Assembly: GCA_963705305.1 (NCBI GenBank)
Contig: OY970067.1
Location: 192,001-256,000 of the forward strand
Direction: 5' to 3'
Length of the DNA stretch: 64,000 bases
DNA from: an uncultured Methylomirabilota bacterium
GTDB taxonomy: Bacteria > Methylomirabilota > Methylomirabilia > Methylomirabilales > 2-02-FULL-66-22
Made by a program: the position numbers and the translations under genes. The stretch's first letter is position 1. Each line of letters opens with the position of its first letter. The notes under the pieces were generated by a model. It made no database searches. It had not been told where the DNA came from and was given only the letters and a program-made list of their open reading frames with translations. Of this stretch, positions 111 through 43,728 are shown one piece after another.

Positions 111-168
111 TGTGGGAGGATTTCCCCGGCGGGCGCTCTCGTCAGGCCCTTTCACGGGAGATACCAGC

Positions 169-25567: not shown

Positions 25568-26649
25568 TAGTGTTGTGTAACTAACGCTGCTTTACAACGA
25601 TCGACCTTCGTCATGATCATGTCAGCGCTCTTGGTCCAGACGAAGCGTTTGGGAGCGCGGTTGTACTCATCGAGGTACTCCTGGATCGCGGCCAGGAGCT
25701 CCTTGACGCTGGCGAAGCTGCCGCGACGGATGCGCTTCTGGGTGATCTCGCGGAACCAGCGCTCGACCAGGTTGAGCCAGGAGCTGCCCGTGGGCGTGAA
25801 GTGGAGATGGAAGCGCGGGTGGCGGTGGAGCCAGCGCTGGACCGGGGGGCTCTTGTGGGTGCCGTAGTTGTCCACGATGAGATGCAGGTCCAGGGCCGCC
25901 GGCGTCTGCTGATCGAGGGTACGGAGGAAGCGGAGGAACTCCTGGCTGCGGTGCCGGGGCAGACACTGGCCGATGACCTTGCCATCGAGCAGGCAGAGGG
26001 CCGCGTAGAGGGTGGTGGTCCCGTGGCGCTTGTAGTCGTGGGTCATCGTGCCGCAGCGGCCCCGCTTCATCGGCAGCCCCGGTTGGGTCCGGTCGAGGGC
26101 CTGGATTTGGCTCTTCTCGTCCACCGACAGGACCAGGGCCCGGTCCGGCGGATCGAGGTACAGCCCCACCACGTCGCGCAGCTTCTCGACAAAGTGGGGA
26201 TCGCGGGAGAGCTTGAAAGTCTCCACCCGGTGCGGCTGCAGCCCATGCTGCTTCCAGATCCGCTGGACCGTCATGTGGGAGAGGCCCTGGGCCTTGGCCA
26301 GGGTGCGGGTGCTCCAGTGCGTCGCCCCCCGCGGGGTACTGTGCAAGGTCGCCTCGACCACCCGCTTCACGACCGCAGGCGAGAGAGCCTTCTTGCGGCC
26401 TGGCCGCGGCGCCTCCTTCAGCAGCCCGGGCGCCCCGCGGGCCTGAAACCGGCTCCGCCACAGCAGCACCGTCGGGCGACTGGTGCCCAGCCGCGCCGCG
26501 CTGGCGTTGTTGGGGACGCCCTCGCTGGCCAGCAGGACGATCCGGGCCCGCAGGGCCACCTTCTGCGGTGTCTTGCCCGAGTTCGCCAGGAACCGGAGTC
26601 GCTTCCGCTGATTCTCGTCGATCGTGAGCGCCCGCGCTGGAGTAAACAT
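25567..26649 (-). CDS. IS630 family transposase
   Basis: [36 protein letters not shown]; stop within the terminal CTAG. Confidence 0.95.
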   Translation of the reverse strand: MFTPARALTIDENQRKRLRFLANSGKTPQKVALRARIVLLASEGVPNNASAARLGTSRPTVLLWRSRFQARGAPGLLKEAPRPGRKKALSPAVVKRVVEATLHSTPRGATHWSTRTLAKAQGLSHMTVQRIWKQHGLQPHRVETFKLSRDPHFVEKLRDVVGLYLDPPDRALVLSVDEKSQIQALDRTQPGLPMKRGRCGTMTHDYKRHGTTTLYAALCLLDGKVIGQCLPRHRSQEFLRFLRTLDQQTPAALDLHLIVDNYGTHKSPPVQRWLHRHPRFHLHFTPTGSSWLNLVERWFREITQKRIRRGSFASVKELLAAIQEYLDEYNRAPKRFVWTKSADMIMTKVDRCKAALVTQH

Positions 26650-28303: not shown

Positions 28304-29848
28304 TCACGCGTTCTGCTCCTGCGTGAGTGCGCGCCTGACCGCAGGCTTCAGGGCAACGAGCCCAAGCAGGCCCGCGATGATGTCGAAGATGCCAGCGATA
28401 TAGAACGGAACCTGGAAGCTGCCCCCAAGGAATGCAACCAGCACTGCGGCCCCCCAGCCTCCGAGAATGGCCGAGAATCCCTTTGACGTGTACAAGATCC
28501 CATAGGTCGCCGTGACATACCTGGGGCCGAACACATCGCCGAGGCACGCGGGGATCAGCGCGGAGGTTTCTCCCCAGGACAGGAACACGATGGGTAGAAG
28601 CACGACGAAGAGTATGGGCATGCCAGTAATCTGGGTGACCAGCAGAATGAGCAGTCCCTCGAGGGAGAAGGCGATGGCCATCGTGTTCTCCCGGCCAATC
28701 CTATCGGATACTGACCCCCACATGATCCGGGAGAGCGAATTGGCGACCCCACCGATCGTCGCGGTGAAGGCTACGAGGGAGATCCCGAGCAGCTTCACGC
28801 TCTGGACGTTGAGCGATCGGGCGAGCTCGGACATGTGCCCAATTGTCATCAGGCCACCCGTGGTCATCACGAGGAACTGGAAGTACATGATGTAAAACTC
28901 CCGCCGGCCGAGCGACTGTTGCCAGGTGTAGTTCACCTTGGACTGGAGGACGCTGCCCGACGCCTTCGGTACCCACCCGGCCGGTGTCCACCCTTCGGGA
29001 GGATGCCGCAGAATCATCGCCATGGCGAAGGCGACCACTCCCAAGATCACCCCCCAGATTGCCATCGCGTGCGCCCAGCCCATGGAGGTGATGCTTTCTA
29101 GCCGTTACACAAAGGTGTTGATAACGGTCGGCGTTTCGCTAGTAACGGCATGAATTGGTTGACCGAATCGGAACGCCTTGTCGGGGAAGAAATCTTCCTC
29201 GATGTCAGCTCAATCCGAAAAGGACGGAATGCGCTGTAACCACAGAGGAATCGCGCCTATTGACAAGCGAATCTTCAACACCTTTGTGTAGCGGGTAGTG
29301 ATGCTTTTGGAAATGGGAATGATGGTCAGGGCGGCCCCCCCGCCAAATCCAGCGCTTGTGAGGCCGGTTGCCAGTCCCCGCCGATCCGGGAACCACTTGA
29401 CGGCATTGCCGGCTGCTGCAATATATATGATCCCTGCCCCTGTGCCCGTGAGGAAACCGTAACAGAGGTAGAGGCCAAATACCGACTGGACCATCGCGCC
29501 GCCGAGGAGCCACCCGACGAGGATCATGCACGACCCGATCGCCATGAGCGTCCGAATCCCGAATCGATCTACCAGGATCCCAGCGATGGGGACTGGCCAA
29601 GTCTGAAAGAGGATGTACAGGGAGAAGATGACCGCAATTTCGGAGTACGGGACCCCCGCAAACTGCTGTTTTAGACCCGGTGTAAAGAGGGTGAACGCAT
29701 ACTGATAGTTGGATATCACCATCATCGAAATGACCCCGGCACACAGTTGCACGACCCGGTTTCCCCTAAACGAACCGAAGAGTTCTTTTGCGAGGTCCTG
29801 GCCTGTCGCTGCAACCGCCTCGATTCGGCCTGTGGTCCCGTTCACCAT
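28304..29848 (-). pseudogene. oxalate/formate antiporter (OFA) family MFS transporter interrupted by a MITE
   Basis: ISNYQYAFTLF, GNAVKWFPDRRGLA.GL..AGFG.G; removing 29098-29307 restores the frame ...PISKSITSMGWAH... Confidence 0.88.
29098..29298. mobile_element. 201-bp MITE with 24-bp TIRs and 9-bp target duplication (IS4/IS50-like ends)
   Basis: ctagccgttacacaaaggtgttga vs revcomp of right end ctacccgctacacaaaggtgttga (22/24); TGATGCTTT at 29089-29097 and 29299-29307. Confidence 0.9.
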
Positions 29849-30420: not shown

Positions 30421-30664
30421 AAGGGCCCTGGCAATTCGCGCAAATTGCGGCAGCGCTAACCGCGCGACACCTGCCGTTTCCATCCTCCGATGACACCGGC
30501 CTTCAATAACACAACAGCCCCTGGGGATCCGTGATCCACCGGGGGCCGTAGGGTTCGCACGCCAGGAGCTTTCCGGCCGGCATCGTTGCCTCCTTCAGGC
30601 CGCCTTGCTGGGCACCGAATTCATTCGGGCCAGACGCTACCGCTCATCGGAGGGGGAAGTCAAG
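30421..30664 (-). repeat. array element type A, copy 1 (promoter - structured RNA - terminator; decayed GGGGACGT end)
   Basis: core gggttcgcacgccaggagctttccgg.cggcatc..gcctcc.tcaggcc shared with 35323-35568 and 40956-41200; minus TTGACT-18-TAGCGT. Confidence 0.85.
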
Positions 30665-30681
30665 GTGCAAATGTGGAAAGA

Positions 30682-30778
30682 CGGAGGTCAGAGGTCCCTG
30701 ATCAGCCGTCAGTGGTCAGAGATCAGCCGTGAGCGGTTAGCCATCAGCCGAGGAATGACCACGGACCGCTGACTATCG
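30682..30778. repeat. heptamer-rich low-complexity tract (TCAGAGG/TCAGCCG/CTGAC)
   Basis: shares gcc.aggaatgac.acggacc with 41212-41382; same position relative to element A. Confidence 0.6.
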
Positions 30779-30839
30779 TCAAGGTGCTGGGGGACGTCCC
30801 CTTTTCACGGCCGGGTGAGGCCTCATCCCCTGCCGTTCG

Positions 30840-31295
30840 TCAGCTCTCGACGCGCTCCCATGTGAGCGAGGACTCGAGGACACCCACGGGCAGTGGAGGC
30901 GCAAGCCGTAGCACCAGCCGATTGCCGGTAAAGGTGAAGAGCCGCTTCCGGTCCGTCCCGACCGCGTTGGGGACCTTGTCGAGCTCCACATGGTGGACCA
31001 CGGATCCCTCCCCGGCGTCTACGTCGTAGGTGCCACAATAGGCCACAAGACCGTTCATGGCTGACCTGATCTCCTGCTCGGCGGGATTGCTTGGGATCAC
31101 CCACTTTGGTCGAGCCGGATTCATGAGGACGGCGCACATCCGCTTGGCATCGATGTACATCAAGTAGCCGACGCCGTTCGGGCCGAGATCGGGGCTCGGG
31201 CGCGTCGTCCCGTCGGCCATGAGCTGTTCGGTCGAAACCAGGCGCCACACCCCGATGAACTGCCTTGCCACAGCATCTTGGGATCGTGCCCGCAT
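30840..31295 (-). CDS. lipocalin-like domain protein
   Basis: FIGVWRLVS, G.N.VGYLMY, AYCGTY, L.WERV; GGAGG SD. Confidence 0.85.
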   Translation of the reverse strand: MRARSQDAVARQFIGVWRLVSTEQLMADGTTRPSPDLGPNGVGYLMYIDAKRMCAVLMNPARPKWVIPSNPAEQEIRSAMNGLVAYCGTYDVDAGEGSVVHHVELDKVPNAVGTDRKRLFTFTGNRLVLRLAPPLPVGVLESSLTWERVES

Positions 31296-31321
31296 CTGTG
31301 CCCCTCCGTTTGGGAGATGAC

Positions 31322-31446
31322 GGCTAACGAAAGAAGTTAACCGGCCCACCCGGCGACCGGGCGATGGGTGGAGAAGAGAAAGGTGAAGGACGGAAACATG
31401 AAACCCGACACCACCGGTCGGGCCCGAGTTGAACGATGGGTTCCGT
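31322..31446 (-). other. integron attC recombination site (125 bp)
   Basis: minus strand: ACGGAAC, 5 bp, GTTCAAC (extra C) ... GTTAAC, 7 bp, GTTAGCC; palindromic arms gggcccg/gggccg; lies 20 bp after one gene's stop and 26 bp before the next start. Confidence 0.82.
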
Positions 31447-31466
31447 GCGCCATGGACGCGCGCTCC

Positions 31467-31913
31467 CTAGAGCCAGCGCCGTACATCATTCTTGTAATGA
31501 ACCCAGGCTGAGCCAAACGTACGAGCCAACCAAGGTTCTTCGGCGTGAATGACGCGGAAATGGAAGGCGAAGGCCACCAAGACCGTGTAGACGAGTAATC
31601 CGCGCGACCCAAACGCGGACGACCAGCCGAGAAGGACGAAGATGACGGCAATGTACATGGGGTTCCGCGAATAGCGATAGAGGCCGCTCGTCACCAGGTG
31701 TTTGGGTGGCGCCCACGGGGCGAGTGTCCCTTTGCCCGAGACATAGAAATCGCGGACGCACCAGAGAAGCGCCAGAAAGCCGATGCCCAGCGGGATCAAG
31801 CCCAAAGGATGAAGGAGCGCAGTGTGTGAGCTACGCCAAAGCCAGGCGAGGGGAACAAGGATCCCGACCACGCCTGGTAGTGCGAGGAAGGCTAGAACTG
31901 CACGTGGGAACAT
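31467..31913 (-). CDS. isoprenylcysteine carboxylmethyltransferase (ICMT/PEMT) family membrane protein
   Basis: GKGTLAPWAPP..LV..GLYRYSRNPMY, EE..L...FG..W..Y...V.RW. Confidence 0.88.
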   Translation of the reverse strand: MFPRAVLAFLALPGVVGILVPLAWLWRSSHTALLHPLGLIPLGIGFLALLWCVRDFYVSGKGTLAPWAPPKHLVTSGLYRYSRNPMYIAVIFVLLGWSSAFGSRGLLVYTVLVAFAFHFRVIHAEEPWLARTFGSAWVHYKNDVRRWL

Positions 31914-31955
31914 GTGCACCTACCGACCGCGCTCACTCGCCGTCGCTTATCACCT

Positions 31956-32252
31956 GGGACGTCGCCAATTTCACCAACTTGCTGGCGAAACGGCCGCAAC
32001 CCGTCTTCCGTGCCTGCAGATGGGCACGCAGCATCGTCTATCAAATGACGGTACTACCTGCCCCGTCATGCCCCGTCAAGGCCGCTTGGACGGTCCGGGC
32101 GCCCTCCACCGGACGATGCTACCGGGGCTAGAGCGGCGCGCCATCCTTCAGGATGGCACGGACCGCACGGATCTCGTAGTCCGCCTCGCGGTGCCGTCGC
32201 GTCCATCCCCTGCCGCCGGCGCGCCAGGAGTGTCCGGGTGCAACGCCCTCCA
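31956..32252 (+). mobile_element. non-autonomous Y1/RAYT-like element with best-preserved transposase 5' remnant
   Basis: left end gggacgtcgccaatttcaccaactt; ATG 32068 reads MPRQGRLDGPGALHRTMLPGLERRAILQDGTDRTDLVVRLA; right end ggagtgtccgggtgcaacgccctcc. Confidence 0.78.
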
Positions 32253-32315
32253 TTTCCGGTCGAGTGACCTGCCCCCTCGAAAATGGGGGGCGGTTTTCGA
32301 CTCGCCCCTCCTCCT

Positions 32316-33509
32316 CTACTTATAGTGGATTGAGCCGACGGTGTGCTTGGCGATGTAATCCCAGTTATAGGAGACTCCCAGACCGGGCCCCTGGGGAATC
32401 GGAACGCAACCCGCTGCATCGATCCCGTCGAAATCCCCGTCCGCGTAGCCGTCCGTGTACAGGCCCTCGGTGTAAAAGGGATGCGAATGCCGGTCGATCT
32501 TCGGATGGACCAGCCCCCATTCGTAGTAGTTGGAATTGCGGATTGCCGCGAGGCAATGGCGGGTCGGGGGATCCCCCAGATGAATCTCCACATCGATGCC
32601 GAGGCTCTCGGCGGCGTGGGCGAGTTTCATCGTCCCGGTGATCCCGTCCAGCCTCACATCGCCCCGCACGAAATCCGTCGCCTCGGCGAGGAGGACGTTC
32701 ATCCGTTGTTCTACGCCGCGGACATGCTCTCCCTGGAGGAGGGGGGTCTTGATCATCTGGCGCAATCTCCGGTGCGCGAAGTTGGATTGCCCCATGTCCT
32801 GGAAGGGATCTTCCAGCCAGAAGAACCCCTCCTCGTCGCAGGCCCGCCCGACCTTCAGGGCCTCCCCGAAGGTCGCATAGGCATTGGCCGGATCGAGCAT
32901 CAGGTCCATCCGGCCCCCCACGCGCTTCCCGACCGCGTGGATCAGCGCGACCTCGCGGGCAATCGGGCCCTGCCACCACGGATGAATCTTGAACCCGCGG
33001 TAGCCCTTCTCGAGGCAGACCTGGGCGAAATCGGCAAAGGCCTCTGGAGAATCCAGGCCGCCGCGCTCATCGCCGAAAGCCGTGCTCGCATACACGGGGA
33101 GCTTCTGTCGGAACCCCCCCAGCAGCTCGTAGATCGGCGCGCCATAGTACTTTCCCGCGATGTCCCAGAGCGCGATATCCACCGGCGCACTGCCCATGCG
33201 TCCGAGATGCCTGAGGATCCGGTTGACCTCGTTGTAGATCTTCTCCCGCTCTAGCGCGTTCTGACCAATGACAATTGACGCAATCCCCGCCATGGCGGCT
33301 GGCTCGATGACGGTGAAGGTCGATACGTATTCTCCCGTGATGCCGGCGTCTGTATGGATCTTGATGGCGTGCGACTTCCGACGAGTCACGGTGCCGGGCT
33401 CGTACACTTCTCGGGTCTCCAGCGTGCCAAAGTCTCGTCTCTCGCGCTCAAACTCGCAGAGTTCGATCCCGGTGATCTTGAGGTTTCTCTGGGCTGTCGC
33501 GTCTGTCAT
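32316..33509 (-). CDS. mandelate racemase/muconate lactonizing enzyme (enolase superfamily) protein
   Basis: VDIALWDIAGK...PIYELLGG, FKIH, LMLDP, WLEDP, GE; AAGGAG SD. Confidence 0.9.
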   Translation of the reverse strand: MTDATAQRNLKITGIELCEFERERRDFGTLETREVYEPGTVTRRKSHAIKIHTDAGITGEYVSTFTVIEPAAMAGIASIVIGQNALEREKIYNEVNRILRHLGRMGSAPVDIALWDIAGKYYGAPIYELLGGFRQKLPVYASTAFGDERGGLDSPEAFADFAQVCLEKGYRGFKIHPWWQGPIAREVALIHAVGKRVGGRMDLMLDPANAYATFGEALKVGRACDEEGFFWLEDPFQDMGQSNFAHRRLRQMIKTPLLQGEHVRGVEQRMNVLLAEATDFVRGDVRLDGITGTMKLAHAAESLGIDVEIHLGDPPTRHCLAAIRNSNYYEWGLVHPKIDRHSHPFYTEGLYTDGYADGDFDGIDAAGCVPIPQGPGLGVSYNWDYIAKHTVGSIHYK

Positions 33510-33778
33510 CCAAGTGCTCCTTCCGCCATGAACCGCGGGGCTCGAAAGTGGTTCGTCGGGGGGCCCGACCGGTTGCCCGTCGGCACGCGGCGAGACCGGC
33601 TCCGCCATTCGGAGGGTGCCGCGCCCGCCCTGCCGGGTGACTCAAAGAGGGTGGCAGTTCCAGGAGAATTGGCAAGCCCTGTGGGGCCGTGCACCGCGCA
33701 CAGCTCACGTCATCCTACGAGGCGTTCCCTGGACGCGAGCGAGAGCATAGCCCGCACCCGGTGCGAGTGCAAGCAATA

Positions 33779-34020
33779 CGGCGCGTTGGATTAATTGTCA
33801 TATCTTGCCGCCGCCCGCCTCGCCAGGCTTCGGTACGCGGAATGCGGCGGCCTGCGAGGCATCCGTACCGTGATTGTGCCAGGGCTGGAGTGCTGGATCA
33901 TCTTCCGAGACGATCGGGGCCGCGCGGAATTCGGTTTCTGGCGGCTTGGCAAGGCCTTGCTTCGCTGTTGCTGAGGACACTGTCGCTGAGGATACTTGAC
34001 AAATAAAGAGAACGTCTCTC
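33779..34020 (+). mobile_element. array element type B copy (transposase 5' remnant between inverted ends)
   Basis: encodes VIVPGLECWIIFRDDRGRAEF; ends gcgttggattaattgtcatat ... ttgacaaataaagagaacgtctctc. Confidence 0.75.
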
Positions 34021-34021
34021 A

Positions 34022-34420
34022 TCACATCCGCGGCAGGGGCTTCACATCGGCGTCGGCACCCGCCGACCGCTCAACCGGATACCCGCATCGCACCCATGCC
34101 TCCATGCCGCCTTCGAGGTTGTAGACCCGCTCGCCGCCGAGCAAGGCGAGAACCTCGGCGCCGAGGGCGCTGATTGCTCCAATGCGGCAGACCACCACGA
34201 TGTCGCGCTCGAGGGCGAGCTCGGCGTGGTGCTTGAAGAGCTCGTCTACCGGAAGGTTCCGGGCCCCGGCGATATGCCCCTGGGCGTACTCCCCCGGCAG
34301 GCGCACATCCACCACCTGGGCCCCGCCCGTCTCGATGAGGGGTCGGGCGTCCGAAACCTCGATCCGGCTGAAGGGCTCCTCGGGGTCAGCCTCCCCCCCT
34401 CCCAGGGGACCGGTCCTCAT
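34022..34420 (-). CDS. rhodanese-like domain protein
   Basis: VDVR.PGEY..GHIAGA.NLP, VVCRIG..S, NLEGGM.AW. Confidence 0.88.
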   Translation of the reverse strand: MRTGPLGGGEADPEEPFSRIEVSDARPLIETGGAQVVDVRLPGEYAQGHIAGARNLPVDELFKHHAELALERDIVVVCRIGAISALGAEVLALLGGERVYNLEGGMEAWVRCGYPVERSAGADADVKPLPRM

Positions 34421-34520
34421 GACTCCCGCGTCCTTCTTTCTCCCCTTTCGCCCGGACTTCGTTTCCCGGCGGCTTGCCAGAAACTCGCTTTGGTGCCGCT
34501 GAAGATATGATTTTGCTAGA

Positions 34521-35180
34521 TCAGCCCTTCCGCGCTGAGGCATCCAGCATCGCCTGGAGCAGCGTTTCCGGCGGCTGCGCTCCGGACACCGCGGCGCGGC
34601 GATTGAAGATGAAGCAGGGCACCGCGTTGATGCCGGCCTGCCGGGCTTCGAGGTCGACTCGCAACACGTCCTCCCGGCCGTCCTCGGACGCCAGGTAGGA
34701 GGCCAAAGCGGCGCGATCCAGGCCGGCACGCTCGCCGACGCTCGCCAGCGCCGCCTGGTCGGTGAGGTCGGCGCCATCCAGGAAATAGGCGCGGAAGAGC
34801 CGCTCCGCGACCGCGTCTTCATGCCCCTGCGTCGCACCGTAGAGCATGAGCCGGTGCGCGTTCAGCGTGTTCGGCTGCACCGTGATGCGGTCGAAGGCGA
34901 AGTCGATACCGACTTCCCGGCCCACGCCCGCCACGCGCGCGTAGCTGTGGGCGTGGCCGGGGCCGAACTTGCGCTCGAGGTAGTCCTGGCGCGGCATGCC
35001 CGCGTCCGGCAGGTCCGGGTTGAGCTGGAACGGCAGCCAGCGCACGGCCGGCTTTCCCCCATCGGGCACGCGCTCCTGGTATAGCCGCAGTGCGGCTTCC
35101 AGGCGCCGCTTGCCGATGAAGCACCAGGGTCAGACGATGTCCGAGACGATTTCGATGGTAAGCGTGGGTTGAGCTTGCAT
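34521..35180 (-). CDS. DsbA/FrnE-family oxidoreductase, predicted selenoprotein (UxxC)
   Basis: MQAQPTLTIEIVSDIV-TGA(35132-35130)-PWCFIGKRRLE continues in frame into PFQLNP...VPCFIF..SGAQP; AAAGGA SD; hairpin GCGGC-GCCTGGAA-GCCGC about 21 nt after UGA. Confidence 0.85.
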
Positions 35181-35322
35181 GCGCCGGTCCTTTCTGCTGG
35201 GAGTGGCCCCGATGTGTCCTGGCGCGGCGTGCGGGGTGCCGGACGGGGCCATTATACCGTCGGAAGGGGCCTTTGTGGATCTCTTCATGGCCGCGAGCGT
35301 TCTTGCTCGTAATGGACGCAAT

Positions 35323-35568
35323 GGGGGACGTTGCCAATTTCGTCAACTCGCGACGGCAACGGTCACGCCCACTCACCGCGCCTCTATCTTTCAGGGACAC
35401 CGGCCTCTACGAACCCAACAGCCCCCTGGGATCCCGTGATCCGCCGGGGGCTGTTGGGTTCGCACGCCAGGAGCTTTCCGGTCGGCATCTTCGCCTCCCT
35501 CAGGCCACCTAGCTGAGAGCGAATTGATTGCGACATGACGCTACCGCCTGTCGGAGGGCGAAGTCAAG
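35323..35568 (-). repeat. array element type A, copy 2
   Basis: end gggggacgttgccaatttcgtc; 15-bp stem gaacccaacagcccc/ggggctgttgggttc; minus TTGACT-18-TAGCGT. Confidence 0.88.
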
Positions 35569-35607
35569 ATGGAAATGCGGGGGCCAGAAATCGGCTTTCA
35601 GAAATAC

Positions 35608-35894
35608 GGGACGCCGCATTCCCTCCCAGACTTTGCCAACGTCCGCCTCGCGAGGTTCCCGCAAGCAGAACTCGATGGCCTGCGAGCCCTCCACAAAGTG
35701 ATGGTGCCAGGCCTGGAGTTTCGGATCATTTTCTGGGAGGACACGGACCGTGCAGATTTCGTTCTCCGCCGGCAAGCCGGGACCCCGCGCTGGTACCGAT
35801 GGAAAGATTCGACGGAGAATGCTACGTCTCCTCTTTCGGCGATACGCGGGGAGGTCGTTAGCAATTAGGACAATTAGGCCACAACGTCCCTTTT
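35608..35894 (+). mobile_element. array element type B copy plus short terminal module
   Basis: encodes PQAELDGLRALHKVMVPGLEFRIIFWEDTDRADFV; ends gctacgtctcc and ggccacaacgtccctttt; near-identical to 38155-38381. Confidence 0.85.
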
Positions 35895-35903
35895 ACGCGG
35901 TTC

Positions 35904-36124
35904 ACAATTCCGGCGTACGAGAACGCGTGAGGACCCGCCCCGGGCCGGGAGGCGCGGCTGACTCTGCATGGGGTGGCCCCGGACCCCACGCCCGCAGGCT
36001 CCTCTGCCGCCGGGGCGCCCGGAGTGCCGGGAGGCTGCCTCCCTCCGAGAAGTTGTTTCAGAACCTACGTCCCGTATTACGTTGGTCTCGTCGGGAGGAT
36101 TTGACAGATAATGCAACGTCCCCC
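35904..36124 (+). repeat. array element type C (ends cagaacctacgtccc and ttgacagataatgcaacgtccccc)
   Basis: first about 48 bp and the gccgggaggctgcctccc...ttcagaacctacg block recur at 37397-37484. Confidence 0.75.
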
Positions 36125-36210
36125 ATTACTGAGGCCGAGGGACGATGCGCCGCCCGCCGATCCGACCTCGCCTGCGGCCGCCACCGGCGGGATCCCCGGG
36201 ACCGGCCGGC

Positions 36211-37422
36211 ATGCGTGAAGCGCCCGCCTTCCCGGGGCCGGCCCGATCCCGGGCGGTCGTGGTGACCGCCCTGGGGACGGCCCAGACCTTGGCCTGGGCG
36301 TCAAGCTACTACCTGCCGGCGATCCTCGCCCATCCGATTGCCGCGGGGCTGGGCGTCCCGCACGCGTGGGTCTTCGCGGCCTTCTCGGCCGCCCTGCTCA
36401 TCGCCGCCCTTGCCGGCCCCGTCGTGGGGCGAGGGATCGATCGCCACGGGGGGCGGGGCGTGCTCGTCCTCTCGAACCTGGTGTTCGCCGGCGGACTGCT
36501 CGCGCTCGCCGCGGCCACGGGCCCCCTCAGTCTCTTCGGGGCCTGGGCGGTGCTCGGCGTCGGGATGGCGCTGGGGCTGTACGACGCCGCGTTTGCCACG
36601 CTGACAAACCTCTACGGCCGCGCGGCCCGCGGCCCAATTACCGGCATCACCCTCTTCGCCGGTTTCGCGTCGACGGTGAGCTGGCCGGTGTCCTCGCTCC
36701 TGATTGATATGCTGGGGTGGCGCGAGACCTGCCTCGTCTGGGCCGCCCTCAACCTGGGAATCTGCCTTCCGCTCAATCGCTTCCTCGTGCCGCTCGCCAC
36801 GGAGCAGGCGCCTCCGCGCCGCGTGCCGGGAGCCCGGGTGGGGTGGAAGCCGCGCAGGGAGATGTTCCTGCTCGCCTTCGTGTTCGGGGCCGCCTGGTTC
36901 GTCACCGGCTCGATGGCGGCCCACCTGCCGCGCCTCCTCGAACGGGCGGGGGCGACGCCCCTCCGGGCGGTCGCCATTGCCGCGCTGGTCGGGCCGGCCC
37001 AGGTCGCCGCGCGGCTGGCCGAGTTCTTCCTTTTGAAACGGACACACCCGGTGGTCTCGGCGAGGATCGCGACGACGCTCCACCCCATCGGCGCGGTCGC
37101 CCTGGCCTGTTGTCCGGGCCCCCTGGGGACAGTGAGCTTTACTGTCCTGTACGGGGCCGGGAATGGCCTGCTAACGATCGCTCGGGGCACGGTCCCGCTC
37201 GCCATCTTCGGTCCTCACGGCTATGGCGAGCGCACCGGCCTCCTCGGCGCCCCCGCCCGCGCCGCCCAGGCGTGCGCCCCGCTGGTGTTCGGGCTCTTGT
37301 TTGACGCCATGGGGCTTGCAGTCATCCTGGTCTCGGCGGGATTGAGCCTGGCCGCGCTGGGCGCCCTGCTGTGTCTGCGCGCAACCCCGGATCGGACAAT
37401 TCCGGCGTACGAGAATGCGTGA
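36211..37422 (+). CDS. MFS transporter
   Basis: LG..QTLAWASSYYLPA, G..IDR.GGR, GLYDAAF; multi-TM pattern; start 36145 or 36211. Confidence 0.88.
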   Translation: MREAPAFPGPARSRAVVVTALGTAQTLAWASSYYLPAILAHPIAAGLGVPHAWVFAAFSAALLIAALAGPVVGRGIDRHGGRGVLVLSNLVFAGGLLALAAATGPLSLFGAWAVLGVGMALGLYDAAFATLTNLYGRAARGPITGITLFAGFASTVSWPVSSLLIDMLGWRETCLVWAALNLGICLPLNRFLVPLATEQAPPRRVPGARVGWKPRREMFLLAFVFGAAWFVTGSMAAHLPRLLERAGATPLRAVAIAALVGPAQVAARLAEFFLLKRTHPVVSARIATTLHPIGAVALACCPGPLGTVSFTVLYGAGNGLLTIARGTVPLAIFGPHGYGERTGLLGAPARAAQACAPLVFGLLFDAMGLAVILVSAGLSLAALGALLCLRATPDRTIPAYENA

Positions 37423-37484
37423 GGGCCCGCCCCGGGCCGGGAGGCTGCCTCCCCTCGAGAAGCTGCTTCAGAACCTACGGCCTT
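37397..37484 (+). repeat. internally deleted type C copy overlapping the MFS stop codon
   Basis: acaattccggcgtacgagaatgcgtgagggcccgccccgggccgggagg is nearly identical to 35904-35952. Confidence 0.8.
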
Positions 37485-37603
37485 ATTCGATGGCTCAAGA
37501 CTTCCCGCAACCGCAGAGCGACCGGAGTCGGCCTGGCGAATTCCCCGGCCGCATCTGCTATACTCCCGGCAAATCTGCGGCCCATTCCTACTGGAGGGCG
37601 CCC

Positions 37604-38098
37604 ATGGACGAACCGGTATTCATCGAGTCACGGGACGAGATGGAGCAGATCCTGCGGGAGGAGGTGCTGGGTCACCTGGGCCTCGCGGGCGACGGGCAGC
37701 CGTACGTGGTGCCCGTCAATTACGCCTACCTGGCCGGGAGGATCCTGTTCCACTGCGCGCTCGCGGGCCAGAAGCTCGACGCCATCCGCCGCAATCCCCA
37801 CGTCTGTTTTACCGTCAGCCGGCAGCGGGGGGAGATGCGGGACCACACCGGCGCCCCCTGCCACATCGACAGCGACAGCGTGATCTGCTACGGCCGGGCG
37901 AGGCTCCTCGAGGACCTCACGGAGCGGGCCGCCGCGCTGAACGCCTTCAACCGCCGCTACCGGCCCGATGCGCCCGATCTCCCGGTGGATCGGGTGGCGC
38001 AGTGCATGGCAGTCGAGATCACGATTGCCGTGATGACCGGGCGGCGGGAGCGAGACCGCCACCGCACGTACTGGCGCGCCATCTTCCATCCGCAATAG
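37604..38098 (+). CDS. pyridoxamine 5'-phosphate oxidase-like / NimA family flavin-binding protein
   Basis: GHLGL...PYVVPVNY, FHCA..GQKLD.IR.NP.VCF, SVI.YG. Confidence 0.88.
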   Translation: MDEPVFIESRDEMEQILREEVLGHLGLAGDGQPYVVPVNYAYLAGRILFHCALAGQKLDAIRRNPHVCFTVSRQRGEMRDHTGAPCHIDSDSVICYGRARLLEDLTERAAALNAFNRRYRPDAPDLPVDRVAQCMAVEITIAVMTGRRERDRHRTYWRAIFHPQ

Positions 38099-38382
38099 GG
38101 GCCGCTGCATTATCTGTCCTGCCGGCGCCCGTCCCGCCAGCCCGCGCCAGGCGCAACTCGACGGCCTGCGAGCTCTCCACAACGTGATGGTGCCAGGCCT
38201 GGAGTTTCGGACCATTTTCTGGGAGGACACGGACCGTGCAGATTTCGTTCTCCGCCGGCAAGCCGGGACCCCGCGCTGGTGCCGATGGAAAGATTCGACG
38301 GAGAATGCTACGTCTCCCCTTTCGGCGACACGCGGGGAGGTCGTCAGTGATTAGGACAATTAGGCCACAACGTCCCCTTTTC
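38098..38382 (+). mobile_element. array element type B copy plus short terminal module
   Basis: left end ggggccgctgcattatctgtc (19/21 to revcomp of 36103-36123); encodes LHNVMVPGLEFRTIFWEDTDRADFV; right end aacgtccccttttc. Confidence 0.88.
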
Positions 38383-38640
38383 ATGAGATTCGGTGACGGA
38401 CAAGGGCAATTCGGCTAGCAGTCTGTCGAAGTCACCCAAATACCTCTCGAAGAGATCGATAAAGAATCCGACGTAGGCAGCTATATTATCCGGCCAATCG
38501 AGATGCGCACGATGAGACTGCACCTCACCTTGGAGTCCCTTGAGGGTCTCGATGCACTTGGCAGTTTCAGCCCGCCAATCTCGGATGTGCGCAAGGATCG
38601 TGTCCATGGAGACACCGGTGTAATCAGTCATCCCAGCCAT
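38344..38640 (-). pseudogene. hypothetical gene probably truncated by the element end at 38382
   Basis: helical protein MAGMTDYTGVSMDTILAHIRDW...; last 13 codons and stop lie inside the repeat. Confidence 0.55.
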
Positions 38641-38784
38641 GAGAGAACGCTCTCTGACAGTCATTGGCCGTCAATCCTCCGCCCCAACTCCACGAAAAAT
38701 AATCCTTTGCGTGGCAAGCTGCACGTAGAACAGCACCCCGACCGGTGCCGGGTGGAGTCGAGCATACCAATAAAGCAGTGCTGA

Positions 38785-39007
38785 GGGAGGCCGCACTATT
38801 TGTAATATGCCGCCGCCGCCCGCCTACCAGGCTCTTCTAGACAGGACTTGATGGCACGTAATGCCTCCACTCCGTGATGGCGTCAGGACTGGATCCGCGG
38901 ATCGTTTGCCAAAGGGCACAGGCCGCGCGGATTTCGTTCCCTAGCGACCTGCCGGGATCCCACTTCGGTGCTGTTGGAAAGATTCCACAGATAATGCTAT
39001 TTCCCCC
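38785..39007 (+). mobile_element. array element type B copy (more decayed)
   Basis: gggaggccgcactatttgtaatat ... gtgatggcgtcaggactgga ... gcgcggatttcgtt ... acagataatgctatttccccc. Confidence 0.78.
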
Positions 39008-39031
39008 ATTACAGGAATCAACCCATTATCT

Positions 39032-39865
39032 TCAGGCAATTCGTGCTAAAGCCTTTGCTGCGATCGCCTTATAGGCGAGCGCCTCCATGAGACTGTCCTC
39101 GGTGCCAAAGAGGGTATATGCGTCAATGTTCATGAGCGAAAGTCTCTCAAGGAAGGGACCGCGCTGACTTCTTGGGAGCCGATATTTCACAAGAACATCC
39201 TGATGGGCATCGGCTTTTTGAAACACTTCCTCGTGACTAGCGTAACTGCACCAACTATTCCGGATGACCCTGCAAATCGTGTACTCGCTCTGCTGCCGGA
39301 AATGCAGGGGAGTAGTTACGATATTGGGCCCCAGCCCCATAATATGTGGCTCATTCTCATCCCATATCTTCGCTTCCCCCGTATATTCCTGAAAGTAATA
39401 GACGGCGACTTCCTCATCAGGATCTTCGTGGGTCCTCTTTGCACATGCTGCCGATCGGAAAGCAAAGAAAGCAGCGACATATGGAGACTCCGACCAGTCG
39501 AGAAGCGGAGACGGGAATCCGTGATGTCTTAGGTAGACCATGAATTCGTATCCAAAAGGTGCCTGGTAAGGTTCCGGCCCCTCCTCTGGGTATGCGCCGA
39601 TGTCCCAGCGTTTCTCCGTCACAGACTCGACGGGTTTCTGGAGAAAGTTGCGGAGCACCCTCCAGCATTCCTTCGTCGTATACGGGTGGTCCGTATACCT
39701 CTCTAGCGTCGTTTTTAGCGGCCAGGAGGCCTTCTCTTGCCCCCGAAATAGAGGCGGGGGGATATAGAGACCCGGAGCCTTCTTGCATGTCTCCGAATAC
39801 CGACGCAAAACCTCACCGACCGCGCGCCCAAAGTCCTCCCAACTCGAAAGCACTAATTCTTTCAT
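39032..39865 (-). CDS. FRG domain protein
   Basis: LFRGQ...W.L.TTLER, LRHHGFPSPLLDWS.SPYVAAFFA, QQS; lower GC than flanks. Confidence 0.9.
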   Translation of the reverse strand: MKELVLSSWEDFGRAVGEVLRRYSETCKKAPGLYIPPPLFRGQEKASWPLKTTLERYTDHPYTTKECWRVLRNFLQKPVESVTEKRWDIGAYPEEGPEPYQAPFGYEFMVYLRHHGFPSPLLDWSESPYVAAFFAFRSAACAKRTHEDPDEEVAVYYFQEYTGEAKIWDENEPHIMGLGPNIVTTPLHFRQQSEYTICRVIRNSWCSYASHEEVFQKADAHQDVLVKYRLPRSQRGPFLERLSLMNIDAYTLFGTEDSLMEALAYKAIAAKALARIA

Positions 39866-39881
39866 TGAATTTTCCTATGGT

Positions 39882-40090
39882 GAGAGACGTCGCATTACTT
39901 GTCATATTTTGTCGGATCCACCAAGCGGATGGATGGCCAGCTAGCCCTCTACGGCGTGATGGTGCCAGGACTGGAGTTTCGGATCATTTCCTGGGAGAAC
40001 ACGGGCCGCGCGGACTTCATTTCCTGGCGGCTTGCCGGGACCACGCCCTGGTGTCGATGGAAAGATTCGACAAACAATGCAACTTCCCCT
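39882..40090 (+). mobile_element. array element type B copy
   Basis: inverted ends gagagacgtcgcattacttgtca / tcgacaaacaatgcaacttcccc; encodes VMVPGLEFRIISWENTGRADF. Confidence 0.85.
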
Positions 40091-40118
40091 GTCATTCACC
40101 CGATCGGATCGTTCCTAG

Positions 40119-40817
40119 TCAATGAATCCAGGCCACCCGGAATGGTTTCTGCCAGTCGTACTGAACTACCGGAACCACCCGAGAGAGACCAGCAGCTTCA
40201 ATAAGAAGTTTGTAGTCCTTCAAAAGGCGCTCCAAAAGATCGAGACACGCGTCAAGATCTCCGTAGGTCGGCAAGTGCCGCATTGGGTGCATACTGCGGT
40301 GCGCCACATGCCTGTTCACAAAGCGTCGCAGCTTTCTTTCTGCCGCAAGGAGTTCGCGCTCGTGTTTGCGAACTACAGCAGGATTGATTTGGTCCGTACC
40401 CCTTTTTGCATAGTGCTCAAAGGATCGATTCCCCAACGTCCGCATCCGTCCCGAGCGATAGAGGCCAACATAGCGGCGCCGGCTAATTACCTCGGGATGG
40501 TCTCTGACGTCCTGGATTAGCCTGAGTAGTGAAATTGAGCGGCTGTCTTTGTCCGTCTGTCGCCTGATGGCGACCGCCATGTCAGCCACGTACGCGCGGT
40601 TCATCCAACTGTAGAAGACGCTGGGCACCTGAAGTTCGGGATTGGAGGCAATCATTGCCTGGACTTCCCGGTACACGTGGCGGTCGAGCGCCATCTCGAC
40701 AATCTCGTCATAGATGCACCGAAGCCAGCGCTTCCAGCGCAGATATACGCTGCGCCGTCTGGATGCAGACGTGATCGCCTGAGGCTTCGGGGGGGCCTTT
40801 TTCCTCTTCCTGCTCAT
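40119..40817 (-). CDS. hypothetical protein, AbiU2/HEPN-like
   Basis: helical; I.R..D...S.SL..L and C-terminal NRHVAH (RxxxxH-like); family call tentative. Confidence 0.6.
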   Translation of the reverse strand: MSRKRKKAPPKPQAITSASRRRSVYLRWKRWLRCIYDEIVEMALDRHVYREVQAMIASNPELQVPSVFYSWMNRAYVADMAVAIRRQTDKDSRSISLLRLIQDVRDHPEVISRRRYVGLYRSGRMRTLGNRSFEHYAKRGTDQINPAVVRKHERELLAAERKLRRFVNRHVAHRSMHPMRHLPTYGDLDACLDLLERLLKDYKLLIEAAGLSRVVPVVQYDWQKPFRVAWIH

Positions 40818-40955
40818 GCTGACCTCGTCTGGCTGCGGCGGACCCGAACGATTAGATCAGAACTCCTTTGGGCGACCGGTGGCCGTTCGATTTGACCGTC
40901 CGCTGGCGTATGGCACCCACTACCTAGCCCTTGTTTAAGGGGACGCGTATTTGAT

Positions 40956-41200
40956 GGGGGACGTTGCCACTTTCGTCACGTTGCCGCAAGCATCATGCAT
41001 CGCTGGGCGCGTGCCATCCTCCCAGGTTCCCGTTCCTACAAAAACACAACAACCCCATAGGATCCCAAGATCCGCCGGGGACTGTCGGGTTCGCACGCCA
41101 GGAGCTTTCCGGTCGGCATCTTCGCCTCCTTCAGGCCGCCTAGCTGGTGTCTGAATTCATTCGGGCAAGACGCTACCTCTCACCGGAGGGGGAAGGCAAG
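40956..41200 (-). repeat. array element type A, copy 3
   Basis: end gggggacgttgccactttcgtc; conserved core; minus TTGCCT-18-TAGCGT; 3' hairpin followed by TTGTGTTTTT. Confidence 0.88.
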
Positions 41201-41211
41201 GGAAAAATACA

Positions 41212-41454
41212 GAGGACGGGGGACCGGAGACGGGAGACAGAGGTCAGGAGTCAGAGGTCGGGGGTCGGGGGTCAGCCAAGGAATGACTACGGACCACGGA
41301 CCTGGGACAGGGGACCGAGGACCGGAGACGAGGGAGGGGAGACGGCCAGAGGATGACCACAGACTACTGACTACTGACCACGGGCCAGAGAGGGGAAAGG
41401 GCCTCCAGCCAGGAGAGGGACCAAACAGGGGGACGTACGCAATTTATTCAACTT
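41212..41454. repeat. heptamer-rich tract followed by an isolated element end (gggggacgtacgcaatttattcaactt, 41428-41454)
   Basis: TCAGAGG/TCGGGGG/ACTGACT units; end motif matches 31956. Confidence 0.65.
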
Positions 41455-41562
41455 ACGTGGAGGCTACCATGAAAATCCATCATGGCATGTTCGATTTTCA
41501 TGGTACGTTTCGATCAATCCCCCGGTTGTTGACGACAGGCCGAATTGGGTGGATTCCAGCGC

Positions 41563-41799
41563 CTAGGCCGCATCCAGGGTGTAAACGGGCACCTCCGCGA
41601 CACGGCTGGGGGTCGGCTCGGACGCCAGCAGGGCCTCAATGCGCTTCACCGTCTCTGCCGAGAACGTCTCCTCCCCGCACTGCCTGCACACTAGCGCCGG
41701 CACCTGCTCAATCGAGACGAGCTTTCCGTGAACGTCGGCGGTGAAGGTCACCCGCCTGGAATCCTCGGTTCCTCCGCATACCGGACACCTACTATCCAT
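41563..41799 (-). CDS. YgiT/MqsA-type zinc-finger protein (putative antitoxin)
   Basis: CPVCGG...VPALVCRQCGE..FS.E. Confidence 0.85.
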   Translation of the reverse strand: MDSRCPVCGGTEDSRRVTFTADVHGKLVSIEQVPALVCRQCGEETFSAETVKRIEALLASEPTPSRVAEVPVYTLDAA

Positions 41800-42130
41800 T
41801 ATCAATCCTCCGGCTCCGCCAGTTCGACCACTCATGCGGATCGGGCTCGTAGACTGTTACAATCCGCGTCCGGGCGAGCGCAATCTGGATGTGGAGCGGC
41901 CGGCCCGTTTCAGTAAAACCCAACAACAAGAGGCTTGGACCGTACTTATCTTGGAGGTACTCCTCGACAACTTCCGCATTGGCAATCGCCTGCTCGATTT
42001 CGTCCGTCCGGATTCCCTGCCGAAGCATGCGACCTACCGCATGCCGAGAGATCTCGTAGCGGCCCGAGCGGAAAGCAGCGCGAATCGCCTCCAGCTGTTC
42101 CCGGCTTTCGTCAGGCACAATTGGAATCAT
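41792..42130 (-). CDS. DUF4258 protein (putative toxin)
   Basis: SRHA..RM...I, EEY..DKYGPS.LLLG....RPLH, VTVYEPD..W; overlaps the partner gene. Confidence 0.85.
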   Translation of the reverse strand: MIPIVPDESREQLEAIRAAFRSGRYEISRHAVGRMLRQGIRTDEIEQAIANAEVVEEYLQDKYGPSLLLLGFTETGRPLHIQIALARTRIVTVYEPDPHEWSNWRSRRIDNG

Positions 42131-42204
42131 ACCAAAAACGGGCGAGGCGGTCCAATCCCCGGCGGACACAGAACGGAATGGAGGCAGGGAGAACGGAAGG
42201 AGAT

Positions 42205-43728
42205 CTACAGCCGGGAGAGGGCGTGGGATTCCAGGTCGACGCGGATGTACCTGGCCAGCAGGGGCTGGACGCGCTCCAGCTCACGGAAGACGTCCTGGGC
42301 GATCTGCCGGTACGAGGGGTGGCCCTGCTTGCCCGAGCGCAGCTCGACGAAGTGGTAGATCTCGCGCAGGTTCCAGGTGAACAGGACCCGCTTCCGGAAG
42401 GCCAGGGGCAGGACGTACTGGGCCTCGCGCGGGAAGCCGGACGCGATCGTCCGGTAGGCCGACTCGGCGCGCGCCATGCACTCGTCGTAGGGGGCCGTGA
42501 GGCCGTAGCGGGCGATCTCGGGCGGCGTGCTGTAGCCGTGCAGGTCGGTGGACTCCTGCGGGATCTGGGTGGCCATGCGGTGCCGCTGGATGTCCCGGAA
42601 GGCTCCGAAGTCCACCAGGATGTCGAAGGTGTAGGTGAGGTGCTCCAGCGCCCGCAGGGGCGCGTCGTGCGGCCCCCGCCGCGCCAGGTACTCCTCGACG
42701 ACCTTCTCCCGCGCCTCCCCGCCCATCGCCGCCGCCCGCGCCTGCACCTGGCGGAAGGGAAGATGGCCGTAGCCGTACAGGATCGCGGCCGCGAGCTGCA
42801 CCTCGGCGTCCTCGGGATACCGGACCAGCGACACGGCCGGCGCCTCCGCGGGGGCGGTCCCCGCGAGCTCCGCGGCGGCCAAGCGTTCCATCGCCTCCGC
42901 CGTCTCGGCCAGGTAGGAACTCTTGTCGGCGTACTTGATCAGGGTGGGAATGACCTGCTGCGCCTCGGTCTTCAGCCGGGCGCCTACCTCCTGCGCCTCG
43001 GCCAGGGGGTGGGAGAGGAGCTTCACGATCAGGTGCTCGAGGAGGCGCCCGTTGATCGTCATCCCGATGTTGGTCAGGGTGGCCGCGGGCAGGACGTAGC
43101 GCAGGATGTCGCAGCTCTTGGCCCGGCAGGCCGCCTCGTGGGCCCGCTCGCTCTGCCCCGCCTCGCGCGGCACCTCCGCCTTGACGGCGGCCGTCACCTG
43201 CTCGATGAGCCGCGTGTAGGTCTCCAGCAGGAAGGCGCAGGTCTCCCGGAAGAGGGCGCCGTGCCTGGACGCGGTCAGGCGCGGCTCGCGGTAGAACTTG
43301 CCCCGATCGAAGACGACGTAGCGGGTGGATTTTTCGGTGTACGAGGCGAGGCGCGTGTCCTCGATGATCTTGCTGGCTACGATGGAGACGTCCTCGACGG
43401 CCAGGTGGGCCACGGCGTGTTCCGCCACCGAGGCGTGGCCGTAGCCGACGACCCACTTCTCGTGGAACTCCTTGGCCTTCTGCCGGGCCCGGGCCAGCTC
43501 GTCCTGCCCTGTGGCGGCCCAGGTCAGCCGCTCCGCCAGGTCGAGGTCCCGGTCCTGGATCAGCTTCAGGAGATTCCGCCGCAGGCTCTCCCGGCTGCGG
43601 CTGTAATAGGCGAACAGGACGGCCACCACCTCTTCCGGGAGATTCTTCAGGGCGAAGATGGGCCGCTCTACATTTGTCACGTAGGGACGGAGGATCGCCG
43701 TCTCTTCCGGCGTGAAGACCTCGCTCAT
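42205..43728 (-). CDS. thyX: FAD-dependent thymidylate synthase, tandem Thy1-domain form
   Basis: YSRS, GYGHASVAEH, YTEKSTRY, RYVLP; second domain FRDIQRHR...QGHPSYR. Confidence 0.85.
   Translation of the reverse strand: MSEVFTPEETAILRPYVTNVERPIFALKNLPEEVVAVLFAYYSRSRESLRRNLLKLIQDRDLDLAERLTWAATGQDELARARQKAKEFHEKWVVGYGHASVAEHAVAHLAVEDVSIVASKIIEDTRLASYTEKSTRYVVFDRGKFYREPRLTASRHGALFRETCAFLLETYTRLIEQVTAAVKAEVPREAGQSERAHEAACRAKSCDILRYVLPAATLTNIGMTINGRLLEHLIVKLLSHPLAEAQEVGARLKTEAQQVIPTLIKYADKSSYLAETAEAMERLAAAELAGTAPAEAPAVSLVRYPEDAEVQLAAAILYGYGHLPFRQVQARAAAMGGEAREKVVEEYLARRGPHDAPLRALEHLTYTFDILVDFGAFRDIQRHRMATQIPQESTDLHGYSTPPEIARYGLTAPYDECMARAESAYRTIASGFPREAQYVLPLAFRKRVLFTWNLREIYHFVELRSGKQGHPSYRQIAQDVFRELERVQPLLARYIRVDLESHALSRL

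Follow-up and report, generated by a model that had tools for sequence, protein, structure and literature searches.

Accessory genes interleaved with TIRtron-derived miniature elements downstream of thyX in a Methylomirabilota genome

How do unrelated genes come to stand in a row with copies of the same repeats between them? The question is raised by a 64,000-nt stretch of contig OY970067.1 (positions 192,001 to 256,000; hereafter the window) from an uncultured Methylomirabilota bacterium with a 5.65-Mb genome of 66% GC, in which eight blocks of one or two genes alternate with repeats over ~11 kb (30.4-41.5 kb of the window), adjoining thyX on its downstream side. An earlier note on this DNA had read the array as integron-like and had attributed its repeats to an HUH transposase encoded elsewhere. 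The region is a lineage-specific accessory-gene island in which non-autonomous derivatives of TIRtrons, the elements of the TIR-associated tyrosine transposases or TIRYTs (Di Nocera et al. 2013, PMC3733652), stand between the blocks, and six of the array repeats are TIRtron-derived miniature elements that keep both ends and have undergone internal deletion. Similar arrays in this genome and in distant ones hint that TIRtron ends help to stack genes, and the reading tentatively preferred here, held with slightly more doubt than confidence, is that the array grew through events at the ends themselves.

The repeats and their parent transposons

The separators of the array are six miniature elements of 215-295 bp, all in the same orientation, three copies of a second repeat (fam2) and five to six solo ends. 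When the miniature-element repeat (fam1) was compared with the whole genome by BLAST, it matched both ends of a ~1.1-kb element at 0.481 Mb, which encodes an intact 352-aa TIRYT (genome 481030-482085) and whose cognate end is (TA)GGGGACGTTGCATTATCTGTC. The six miniature elements, at 31955, 33779, 35608, 38098, 38785 and 39882, align to both ends of this intact element with the interior lost, and five of them share one common deletion junction. With the 352-aa protein as query, tblastn detected TIRYT fragments within the array (32065-32190, 35662-35778 and 38142-38264) and 13 near-full-length loci outside the window with at least 300 aligned residues, plus further fragments. These loci are 47-70% identical to the query, except for one identical pair, and core-bearing inverted repeats surround the full copies. 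The proposal that the repeats are remnants of a Y1/HUH transposase resembling the REP-associated tyrosine transposases (RAYTs), encoded elsewhere in the genome, is borne out by these fragments, alignments and gene copies.

The 352-aa protein matches Pfam Y1_Tnp (E = 2.2e-06) and scores 59.3 bits against REP_Tyr_transpos, the NCBIfam RAYT model, which is under the 80-bit cut-off. Its C-terminus has a weak match to Bac_DnaA_C (E = 0.012; 16.1 bits, under the 31.5-bit cut-off), and the same domain is found in TIRYT relatives of locus L061, described below, with E values of 2e-08 (34.5 bits) and 8e-06. In seven aligned paralogues located outside the window, N59, H60 and H62 of the HUH motif (NHAHLL / NHVHLL) and Y119, H121, L122, N123 and P124 of the Y motif (YLHLNP / YIHLNP) are invariant, and the proteins are 327-352 aa long. 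The nearest relatives of the transposase, 58-79% identical to it, come from metagenome-assembled genomes (MAGs) that carry the label Methylomirabilota or Methylomirabilia, and the core of the intact element flanks TIRYT relatives at 27 of the 38 loci examined from other phyla.

In the available portions of the literature, TIRYTs correspond to TnpA-Y1 subclass 2.1 (Quentin et al. 2018, PMC6006769) and to RAYT Group 1 (Bertels et al. 2017, PMC5581495), and they form the largest RAYT-like group, present in 150 species belonging to 21 bacterial classes (PMC5581495). Subclass 2.1 is marked by the motifs NH[VAYF]H and Y[IV]HLNP, with the class 2 signature Y---NP (PMC6006769, Table 1), and by a C-terminal helix-turn-helix (HTH) extension resembling Bac_DnaA_C, HTH_23 or HTH_28. 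The occurrence of TIRtron end repeats singly, in pairs and in groups has been on record since 2013 (PMC3733652). The elements described here resemble TIRtrons in the motifs NHAH and Y[LI]HLNP, in a long C-terminal extension with a candidate DnaA_C-like HTH, in GGGG-led inverted repeats and in the presence of several diverged copies per genome, whereas they differ in the core, which is given as GGGG[AT][CG]A[CG] (GGGGWSAS) in the available published text and is GGGGACGT here, with 6 of 8 positions matching.

The TIRtron inverted repeats are 26-30 bp long and non-palindromic; their outer core, (TA)GGGGACGTTGC, is common to all paralogues and the inner 12-18 nt of each end are paralogue-specific. 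At least nine of the 13 full copies carry GGGGACGT on both sides, and most show inverted repeats by eye. We infer that the conserved catalytic domain may nick and join DNA at the outer core. In the inner part, the ends consist of two direct sub-repeats ~8-9 nt apart (GACATTAT/TGACTTTAT, AACCTTA/TTACCTTA and TAGACTTAA/TAGACTTAT), a pattern present in all end subtypes, with examples at genome positions 4323810, 4322290, 1865637 and 5462777, and this duplication suggests that the cognate HTH domain may bind there in tandem.

Two further features of the ends were observed. The terminal 9-15 nt recur as short tandem repeats directly outside the ends, on either side and in several phyla (e.g. AATAGGGGACG up to 4x; genome 481-503k, 739k and 2525k; loci L045, L055, L056, L089, L110 and L115), and these may be scars of cleavage and joining chemistry. 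TIRtron ends are also often flanked by TA. TA is the target of IS630-type elements, and two IS630-type transposase genes (DDE_3 + HTH) are located just left of the array, at 23809-24942 and 25567-26646, both on the minus strand.

The octamer GGGGACGT, which the earlier note had used as the marker of the ends, is enriched in the window, with 11 copies where 4.25 would be expected, a count that none of 100 shuffles attained; seven of the 11 lie within 30.79-41.44 kb. Genome-wide, the octamer is uninformative (477 copies against ~423 expected). The 11-mer GGGGACGTTGC is informative, with 72 copies in the genome against ~8 expected, and the ends are clustered rather than spread uniformly. A stricter catalogue of the genome holds 135 ends in 19 families, and the two densest 50-kb bins in a looser, octamer-based count are the array bin and 4.30-4.35 Mb. 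Six of the ~7 copies of the fam1 miniature element in the genome lie within 8 kb. Another type of miniature element, 213 bp long, is scattered singly elsewhere in three near-identical copies. The fam1 miniature element spanning its deletion junction was not detected in the 65 other genomes of the order that were searched, and five relatives of the genus carry 3-17 exact copies of the 11-mer each.

The array and its surroundings

The features of the array and of its right flank are as follows, in window coordinates, with cargo assigned by Pfam where a family is named.

30421..30801, plus strand: fam2 copy 1, with a degenerate left end, a ~200-nt conserved non-coding core (30480-30680), simple repeats and the palindrome GGGGGACGTCCCC (30789-30801)
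30840..31349, minus strand: lipocalin-like cargo (PF13924, Lipocalin_5)
31467..31919, minus strand: cargo, PEMT/ICMT-type membrane methyltransferase
31955..32251, plus strand: miniature TIRtron, variant copy, with a left end, a TIRYT N-terminal remnant (32065-32190) and a degenerate right end
32316..33608, minus strand: cargo, enolase-superfamily enzyme (MR_MLE_N + MR_MLE_C)
33779..34021, plus strand: fam1 miniature TIRtron, left and right ends degenerate, common deletion junction
34022..34837, minus strand: cargo, open reading frame (ORF) with a rhodanese domain (Rhodanese); its N-terminal third overlaps the DsbA-like frame and its true start is probably at or below 34520
34521..35180, minus strand: cargo, DsbA/FrnE-like gene, interrupted in frame by TGA (35130-35132) in place of the first Cys of CPWC
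35323..35607, plus strand: fam2 copy 2, with an intact left end GGGGACGTTGCCAATTTCGTCAAC and the conserved core (35385-35585)
35608..35835, plus strand: fam1 miniature TIRtron, its 71-301 nt portion 95% identical to the 38098 copy (226 aligned nt)
35883-35894, 36066-36077 and 36103-36127, minus strand: three solo right-type ends of three subtypes, by alignment and end families; a partial duplicate of the MFS/PNPOx junction sits among them (35883..36127)
36145-37422, plus strand: cargo, MFS transporter (MFS_1)
37415-38098, plus strand: cargo, PNPOx-like/Pyridox_ox_2 protein; with the MFS gene it forms a block (36145..38098) of 68-73% GC
38098..38321, plus strand: fam1 miniature TIRtron, aligned to the intact element ends
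38369..38380, minus strand: solo right-type end, of the subtype that bounds the intact paralogue at genome 5.41 Mb
38344-38664 (minus strand) and 38503-38784 (plus strand): cargo block of two overlapping ORFs, without a match in the family search
38785..39010, plus strand: fam1 miniature TIRtron with degenerate ends
39032..39865, minus strand: cargo, FRG-domain protein (FRG)
39882..40093, plus strand: fam1 miniature TIRtron, aligned to the intact element ends
40119..40817, minus strand: cargo, AbiU2-type HEPN protein (HEPN_AbiU2; abortive-infection family)
40939..41427, plus strand: fam2 copy 3, with a repeated core at 40939, an intact left end at 40956, the conserved core (41015-41215) and simple repeats
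41428..41455, plus strand: solo left-type end GGGGGACGTACGCAATTTATTCAAC
41563-41835, minus strand: cargo, small zinc-ribbon partner of the DUF4258 protein, weakly MqsA-like (22 bits; Pfam cut-off 30 bits)
41792-42169, minus strand: cargo, DUF4258 protein; with its MqsA-like partner (41563..42169) presumably a toxin-antitoxin pair
42205..43728, minus strand: thyX (507 aa), the flank of the array, 62-77% identical in 21 of the 30 relatives searched

The alternation of unrelated gene blocks with repeats that had been described earlier is reproduced: repeat families of 143-261 nt with 3-6 copies each, together with inverted end pairs, occur where they had been located, and each of the 21 end positions proposed carries the motif, in some cases degenerate, and could be placed as element ends or as members of genome-wide end families. 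Close abutment of genes and ends was likewise found as claimed. The rhodanese stop codon (34022-34024) adjoins an end whose core finishes at 34020, the TAG of the PNPOx-like (NimA-like) gene (38096-38098) overlaps the first G of an end, and the FRG gene starts at 39865 next to an end at 39882; overall, the spacers left between genes and ends are 0-170 nt long. The fam1 copies are 65-96% identical among themselves and most fam1 cores, at the ends of the six miniature elements, carry 1-4 core changes, indicating that the array is old. Third-position GC content (GC3) of the cargo is 0.59-0.87, against 0.95 for thyX.

Pfam also confirmed most of the gene identities given in the earlier note, with the exception of the location of DsbA: the ORF at 34819-35400 is a wrong-frame artefact, and the DsbA-like gene is the one at 34521-35180 on the minus strand. 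This gene reads IV-TGA-PWC around the first Cys of CPWC, the genome encodes SelA (488.8 bits), and a hairpin 3' of the TGA is not better than shuffled controls (z = -1.64); the gene is a candidate selenoprotein or a pseudogene.

The fam2 copies at 30421, 35323 and 40939 combine a left end, a ~200-nt conserved non-coding core and simple repeats, and each of them precedes another left-type end. Six copies of the core are present, three in the window and three at genome 516.5k, 769k and 774k, with a mean column identity of 82%, and the core is always preceded by a left-type end. Its consensus is predicted to fold into long hairpins, with two-sided changes in only 6 of 58 pairs among the six sequences, and an Rfam search of 29.5-42.5 kb returned nothing relevant and no match to the core.

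The thyX neighbourhoods of nine relatives contain no ends and none of the 17 window proteins tested (cargo and left flank); the cargo is therefore not syntenic in relatives, and these genomes are too distant for breakpoint mapping. The FRG gene is present in 5 of 66 genomes of the order, the present genome counted. The TetR gene (window 112-774) and genes just outside the window on its left (genome 186.9-191.8 kb) have orthologues 3-7 kb from thyX in two relatives, whereas the distance from the TetR gene to thyX here is ~41 kb, and because of this difference ~41 kb of the window (about 800-42200) may be lineage-specific. To the left of the array, an MFS gene (28304-29083 / 29210-29848) is split by a 202-bp miniature element (29097-29298) with 24-nt inverted ends, which has ~18 further genome copies at 95-100% identity and is unrelated to the TIRtron family.

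Solo-end arrays in this genome and in other phyla

Two other arrays in the same genome contain only solo ends, which are well conserved and have a single orientation in each array. At 4.32 Mb all 14 solo ends are on the minus strand, and at 4.38 Mb all seven are on the plus strand; the 4.32-Mb ends are not independent of one another because that array includes a segmental duplication. The genes among the ends encode PIN, DUF5615, HEPN/nucleotidyltransferase, HepT and DUF2442 proteins. These arrays are fresher than the thyX array and would give a clearer view of any growth at the ends. The duplicated pair shares 99.86% identity over 2116 nt, breaking off 4 nt outside an end, and its members differ by one unit, an extra 1061 nt between two direct ends that carries a HepT toxin gene. 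A TOTE conflict-system primase-helicase gene (AEP-TOTE + ResIII, 863 aa; genome 4329950-4332541) is located between the two duplicated solo-end arrays. At genome 1465626-1467877, two co-oriented ends flank a gene for adenosine deaminase (345 aa) that neighbours an intact TIRYT gene; both ends are of the subtype of this TIRYT, and the deaminase gene starts 2 nt from the inner one.

A set of 80 loci from other phyla was considered, of which 70 have a recognisable left end and 52 are evaluable, having at least 1.5 kb upstream. Extra cognate ends are present upstream of the transposase gene at 9 of the 52; 16 of these ends share the orientation of the left end and 2 face the other way, and no hits were obtained with reversed sequence as a control. 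In a deltaproteobacterial MAG (loci L061/L149, at a contig end), at least 10 co-oriented ends occur in ~10 kb, 630-740 nt apart, with duplicated ParE, MazF and HigBA units between them and one TIRYT copy cut off at an end. The same MAG holds a DUF4143 ATPase gene between a left end and a truncated element, in the order end, DUF4143 ATPase, truncated end, remnant, end. In it a unit of one end and HigBA also recurs with a different left neighbour, the homology beginning 4 nt outside the end. Modules bracketed by ends at other loci are ParE, MazE/PIN, Phd/PIN and Fic. Genome-wide in the Methylomirabilota bacterium, 69 of 117 family ends, a number that includes the ends of diverged full-length genes, have inward homology of 40 nt or less (the end itself) with any differently flanked copy.

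How the array may have grown

According to the preferred reading, growth at the ends, an existing end, or the DNA next to it, would have received new DNA, in some cases a unit made up of cargo and one end, rather than miniature elements having been inserted at random into a pre-existing row of genes. Cargo capture by the TIRYT enzyme is plausible, and the thyX array would be mainly a fossil record of end-joining events, given that most of its cores are mutated. Several observations weigh against this reading. Most cores in the thyX array are degenerate, and its cargo genes have no duplicate elsewhere in the genome. The indirect cases also fit homologous recombination, in which exchange between direct repeats of 30-110 nt would delete or swap units, and junctions at ends could equally reflect adjacent deletion induced by the transposase. 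In a single case from a congener, no ends were recognised within 1.5 kb of the FRG homologue, which is 62% identical. The miniature element folded as a single strand shows no excess of panhandle over shuffled controls (z = 0.36), and the palindrome GGGGACGTCCCC, considered as an empty target site, was dropped, with 3 copies against 0-7 for nine control palindromes. A replication-strand orientation rule was also dropped, as the elements follow the replichore inconsistently: by GC skew, 9 of 13 full TIRtron copies are co-directional with it and the window copies are not. The nearest genomes belong to other species (thyX 62-77% identical), which places polymorphism at the locus out of reach. One sequencing run contained 20% of the sampled sequence words, as contigs, and no RNA run was among those listed; the pieces that three runs gave over the array are short, without joints at ends and uninformative either way, with loose ends at 36098/36128 and 41147 that resemble other repeat copies.

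The chief rival holds that the ends never carried genes: cargo would have entered a permissive region by other routes, miniature TIRtrons and end fragments moved in trans would then have inserted in the gaps, and RecA-dependent recombination would have reshuffled or deleted units. This passive hotspot is quite possible, with somewhat more to doubt than to credit in it. The neighbourhood is variable as a whole, as the 3-7 kb between left-gene orthologues and thyX in two relatives indicates, and other mobile DNA is close by in the 202-bp element and the IS630-like genes at 23.8-26.6 kb. Transposition also predicts complete left-right miniature elements, which most separators are, and the 213-bp elements of another type are dispersed singly; operon-like gene pairs are uninterrupted, and the residual spacers of 0-170 nt have normal intergenic lengths. 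Harder to reconcile with it are the six of ~7 miniature copies that lie co-oriented within 8 kb, the conserved one-orientation solo-end arrays, which with both flanks unique are difficult to derive by decay of complete elements, and the pattern of end, cargo, end and TIRYT that appears in unrelated phyla with a strong orientation bias.

RAYTs have been proposed to maintain REPINs, and the repeats could similarly have been kept for host use as terminators, mRNA stabilisers or insulators and maintained by the TIRYT paralogues, an explanation that we consider improbable. The relationship of TIRYTs to RAYTs, the single, paired and grouped occurrence of the end repeats in the manner of REPs (available portions of PMC3733652), the resemblance of 13 diverged paralogues to long-term residents more than to a recent insertion-sequence burst and the location of repeats at the 3' ends of minus-strand genes would suit such a role, but the cores in the array are decaying, the miniature element folds no better than shuffled sequences, and the presence of just 3-17 exact 11-mers in relatives argues against a conserved host function. 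The integron reading, in which the array is a sedentary integron or an attC cluster lacking an integrase and the repeats are attC sites for a tyrosine recombinase, was rejected as hardly tenable, given that no integrase adjoins the array and that the repeats are TIRtron-derived. It draws on the fact that unrelated genes, mostly co-oriented and poor in promoters, lie between related imperfect inverted repeats, and that a lipocalin and a probable toxin-antitoxin pair are among them. Against it, the genome has 26 PF00589 matches, all of them outside the window, Pfam scans of window ORFs found no recombinase, and in these searches no integron integrase (IntI) adjoins the array; none of the 13 near-full-length TIRYT genes lies in the window either. 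The recombinase beside the fam2 copy at 0.517 Mb looks, from its sequence alone, like a phage-type integrase, solo ends lack an inverted-repeat partner, and by eye the ends have no attC core sites, Rfam itself having no attC model.

A more specific form of growth at the ends, which we regard as unlikely, is that TIRYT ends are HUH-type recombination sites that build a second, HUH-based, integron-like gene-stacking system via single-stranded circles. A segment with co-oriented ends on both sides would be copied, and the copy released as a single-stranded circle of one end plus cargo, initiation and termination taking place at one nick site as in a rolling-circle plasmid; the circle would be joined into another end, and repetition would produce arrays of end-plus-gene units.

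Each of the known systems shares part of this architecture. Integron arrays also consist of small unrelated accessory genes, mostly in one orientation, with lineage-specific imperfect inverted repeats between them, and toxin-antitoxin, lipocalin and defence-type genes are integron cargo as they are cargo here; however, neither IntI nor attI was found here, by eye the ends lack attC core sites, the repeats come from an HUH transposon, and the chemistry would be HUH nicking and joining instead of strand exchange by a tyrosine recombinase. IS91, ISCR and Helitrons are mobilised by two-tyrosine Rep-like enzymes, have distinct ori and ter ends without inverted repeats, and move adjacent genes by one-ended transposition. 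The present elements resemble them in having an HUH enzyme and single ends beside varied cargo, and units between co-oriented nick sites could in principle leave as single-stranded circles, whereas the enzyme here is a Y1 protein with identical inverted ends. REPINs and RAYTs share the related Y1 clade (Y---NP) and short non-autonomous repeats presumably moved in trans, but REPs are short GTAG-tagged palindromic hairpins, usually with one RAYT per genome, in contrast to the 26-30-bp non-palindromic GGGGACG-led ends, 13 gene copies and miniature elements with gene remnants found here. The fam1 elements are classic internal-deletion derivatives with both ends, like miniature inverted-repeat transposable elements and mobile insertion cassettes, from which the array differs in that most cargo is placed behind single ends or has a complete miniature element on either side, instead of being enclosed by a left-right pair, and that the parent transposase is HUH, not DDE. 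IS200/IS605 enzymes, with Y---Q, ~150 aa and subterminal hairpins without inverted repeats, differ from the 327-352-aa Y---NP enzymes and inverted repeats described here.

The earlier suggestion of novelty is narrowed by the fact that the element family and its grouped ends were described in 2013 (available portions of PMC3733652). The family and its single, paired and grouped ends are already known, and the interleaving with accessory genes and the recurrence of end, toxin-antitoxin module, end and TIRYT were not found in the literature searched. The available portions of PMC3733652, PMC6006769 and PMC5581495 contain no description of miniature copies interleaved with accessory genes or of co-oriented solo ends bracketing toxin-antitoxin modules, and the titles and abstracts listed in the literature searches gave no such arrays; the supplementary TIR lists of PMC3733652 may hold relevant grouped repeats.

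The available portions of the same three papers report no function or mechanism for TIRYTs. The orientation bias of the ends across phyla makes the gene-joining question worth a bench test. If the ends do not join genes, such arrays would still mark variable, horizontally filled regions and warn annotators against integron calls. If the ends do join gene units, they would constitute a new single-strand HUH route of gene stacking alongside integrons and ISCR, which would account for the accumulation of toxin-antitoxin and defence genes next to TIRtrons, and, should the single-stranded circle model hold, the result would be a stacking system that is rich in such genes and occurs widely, in Methylomirabilota, Desulfobacterota and further phyla.

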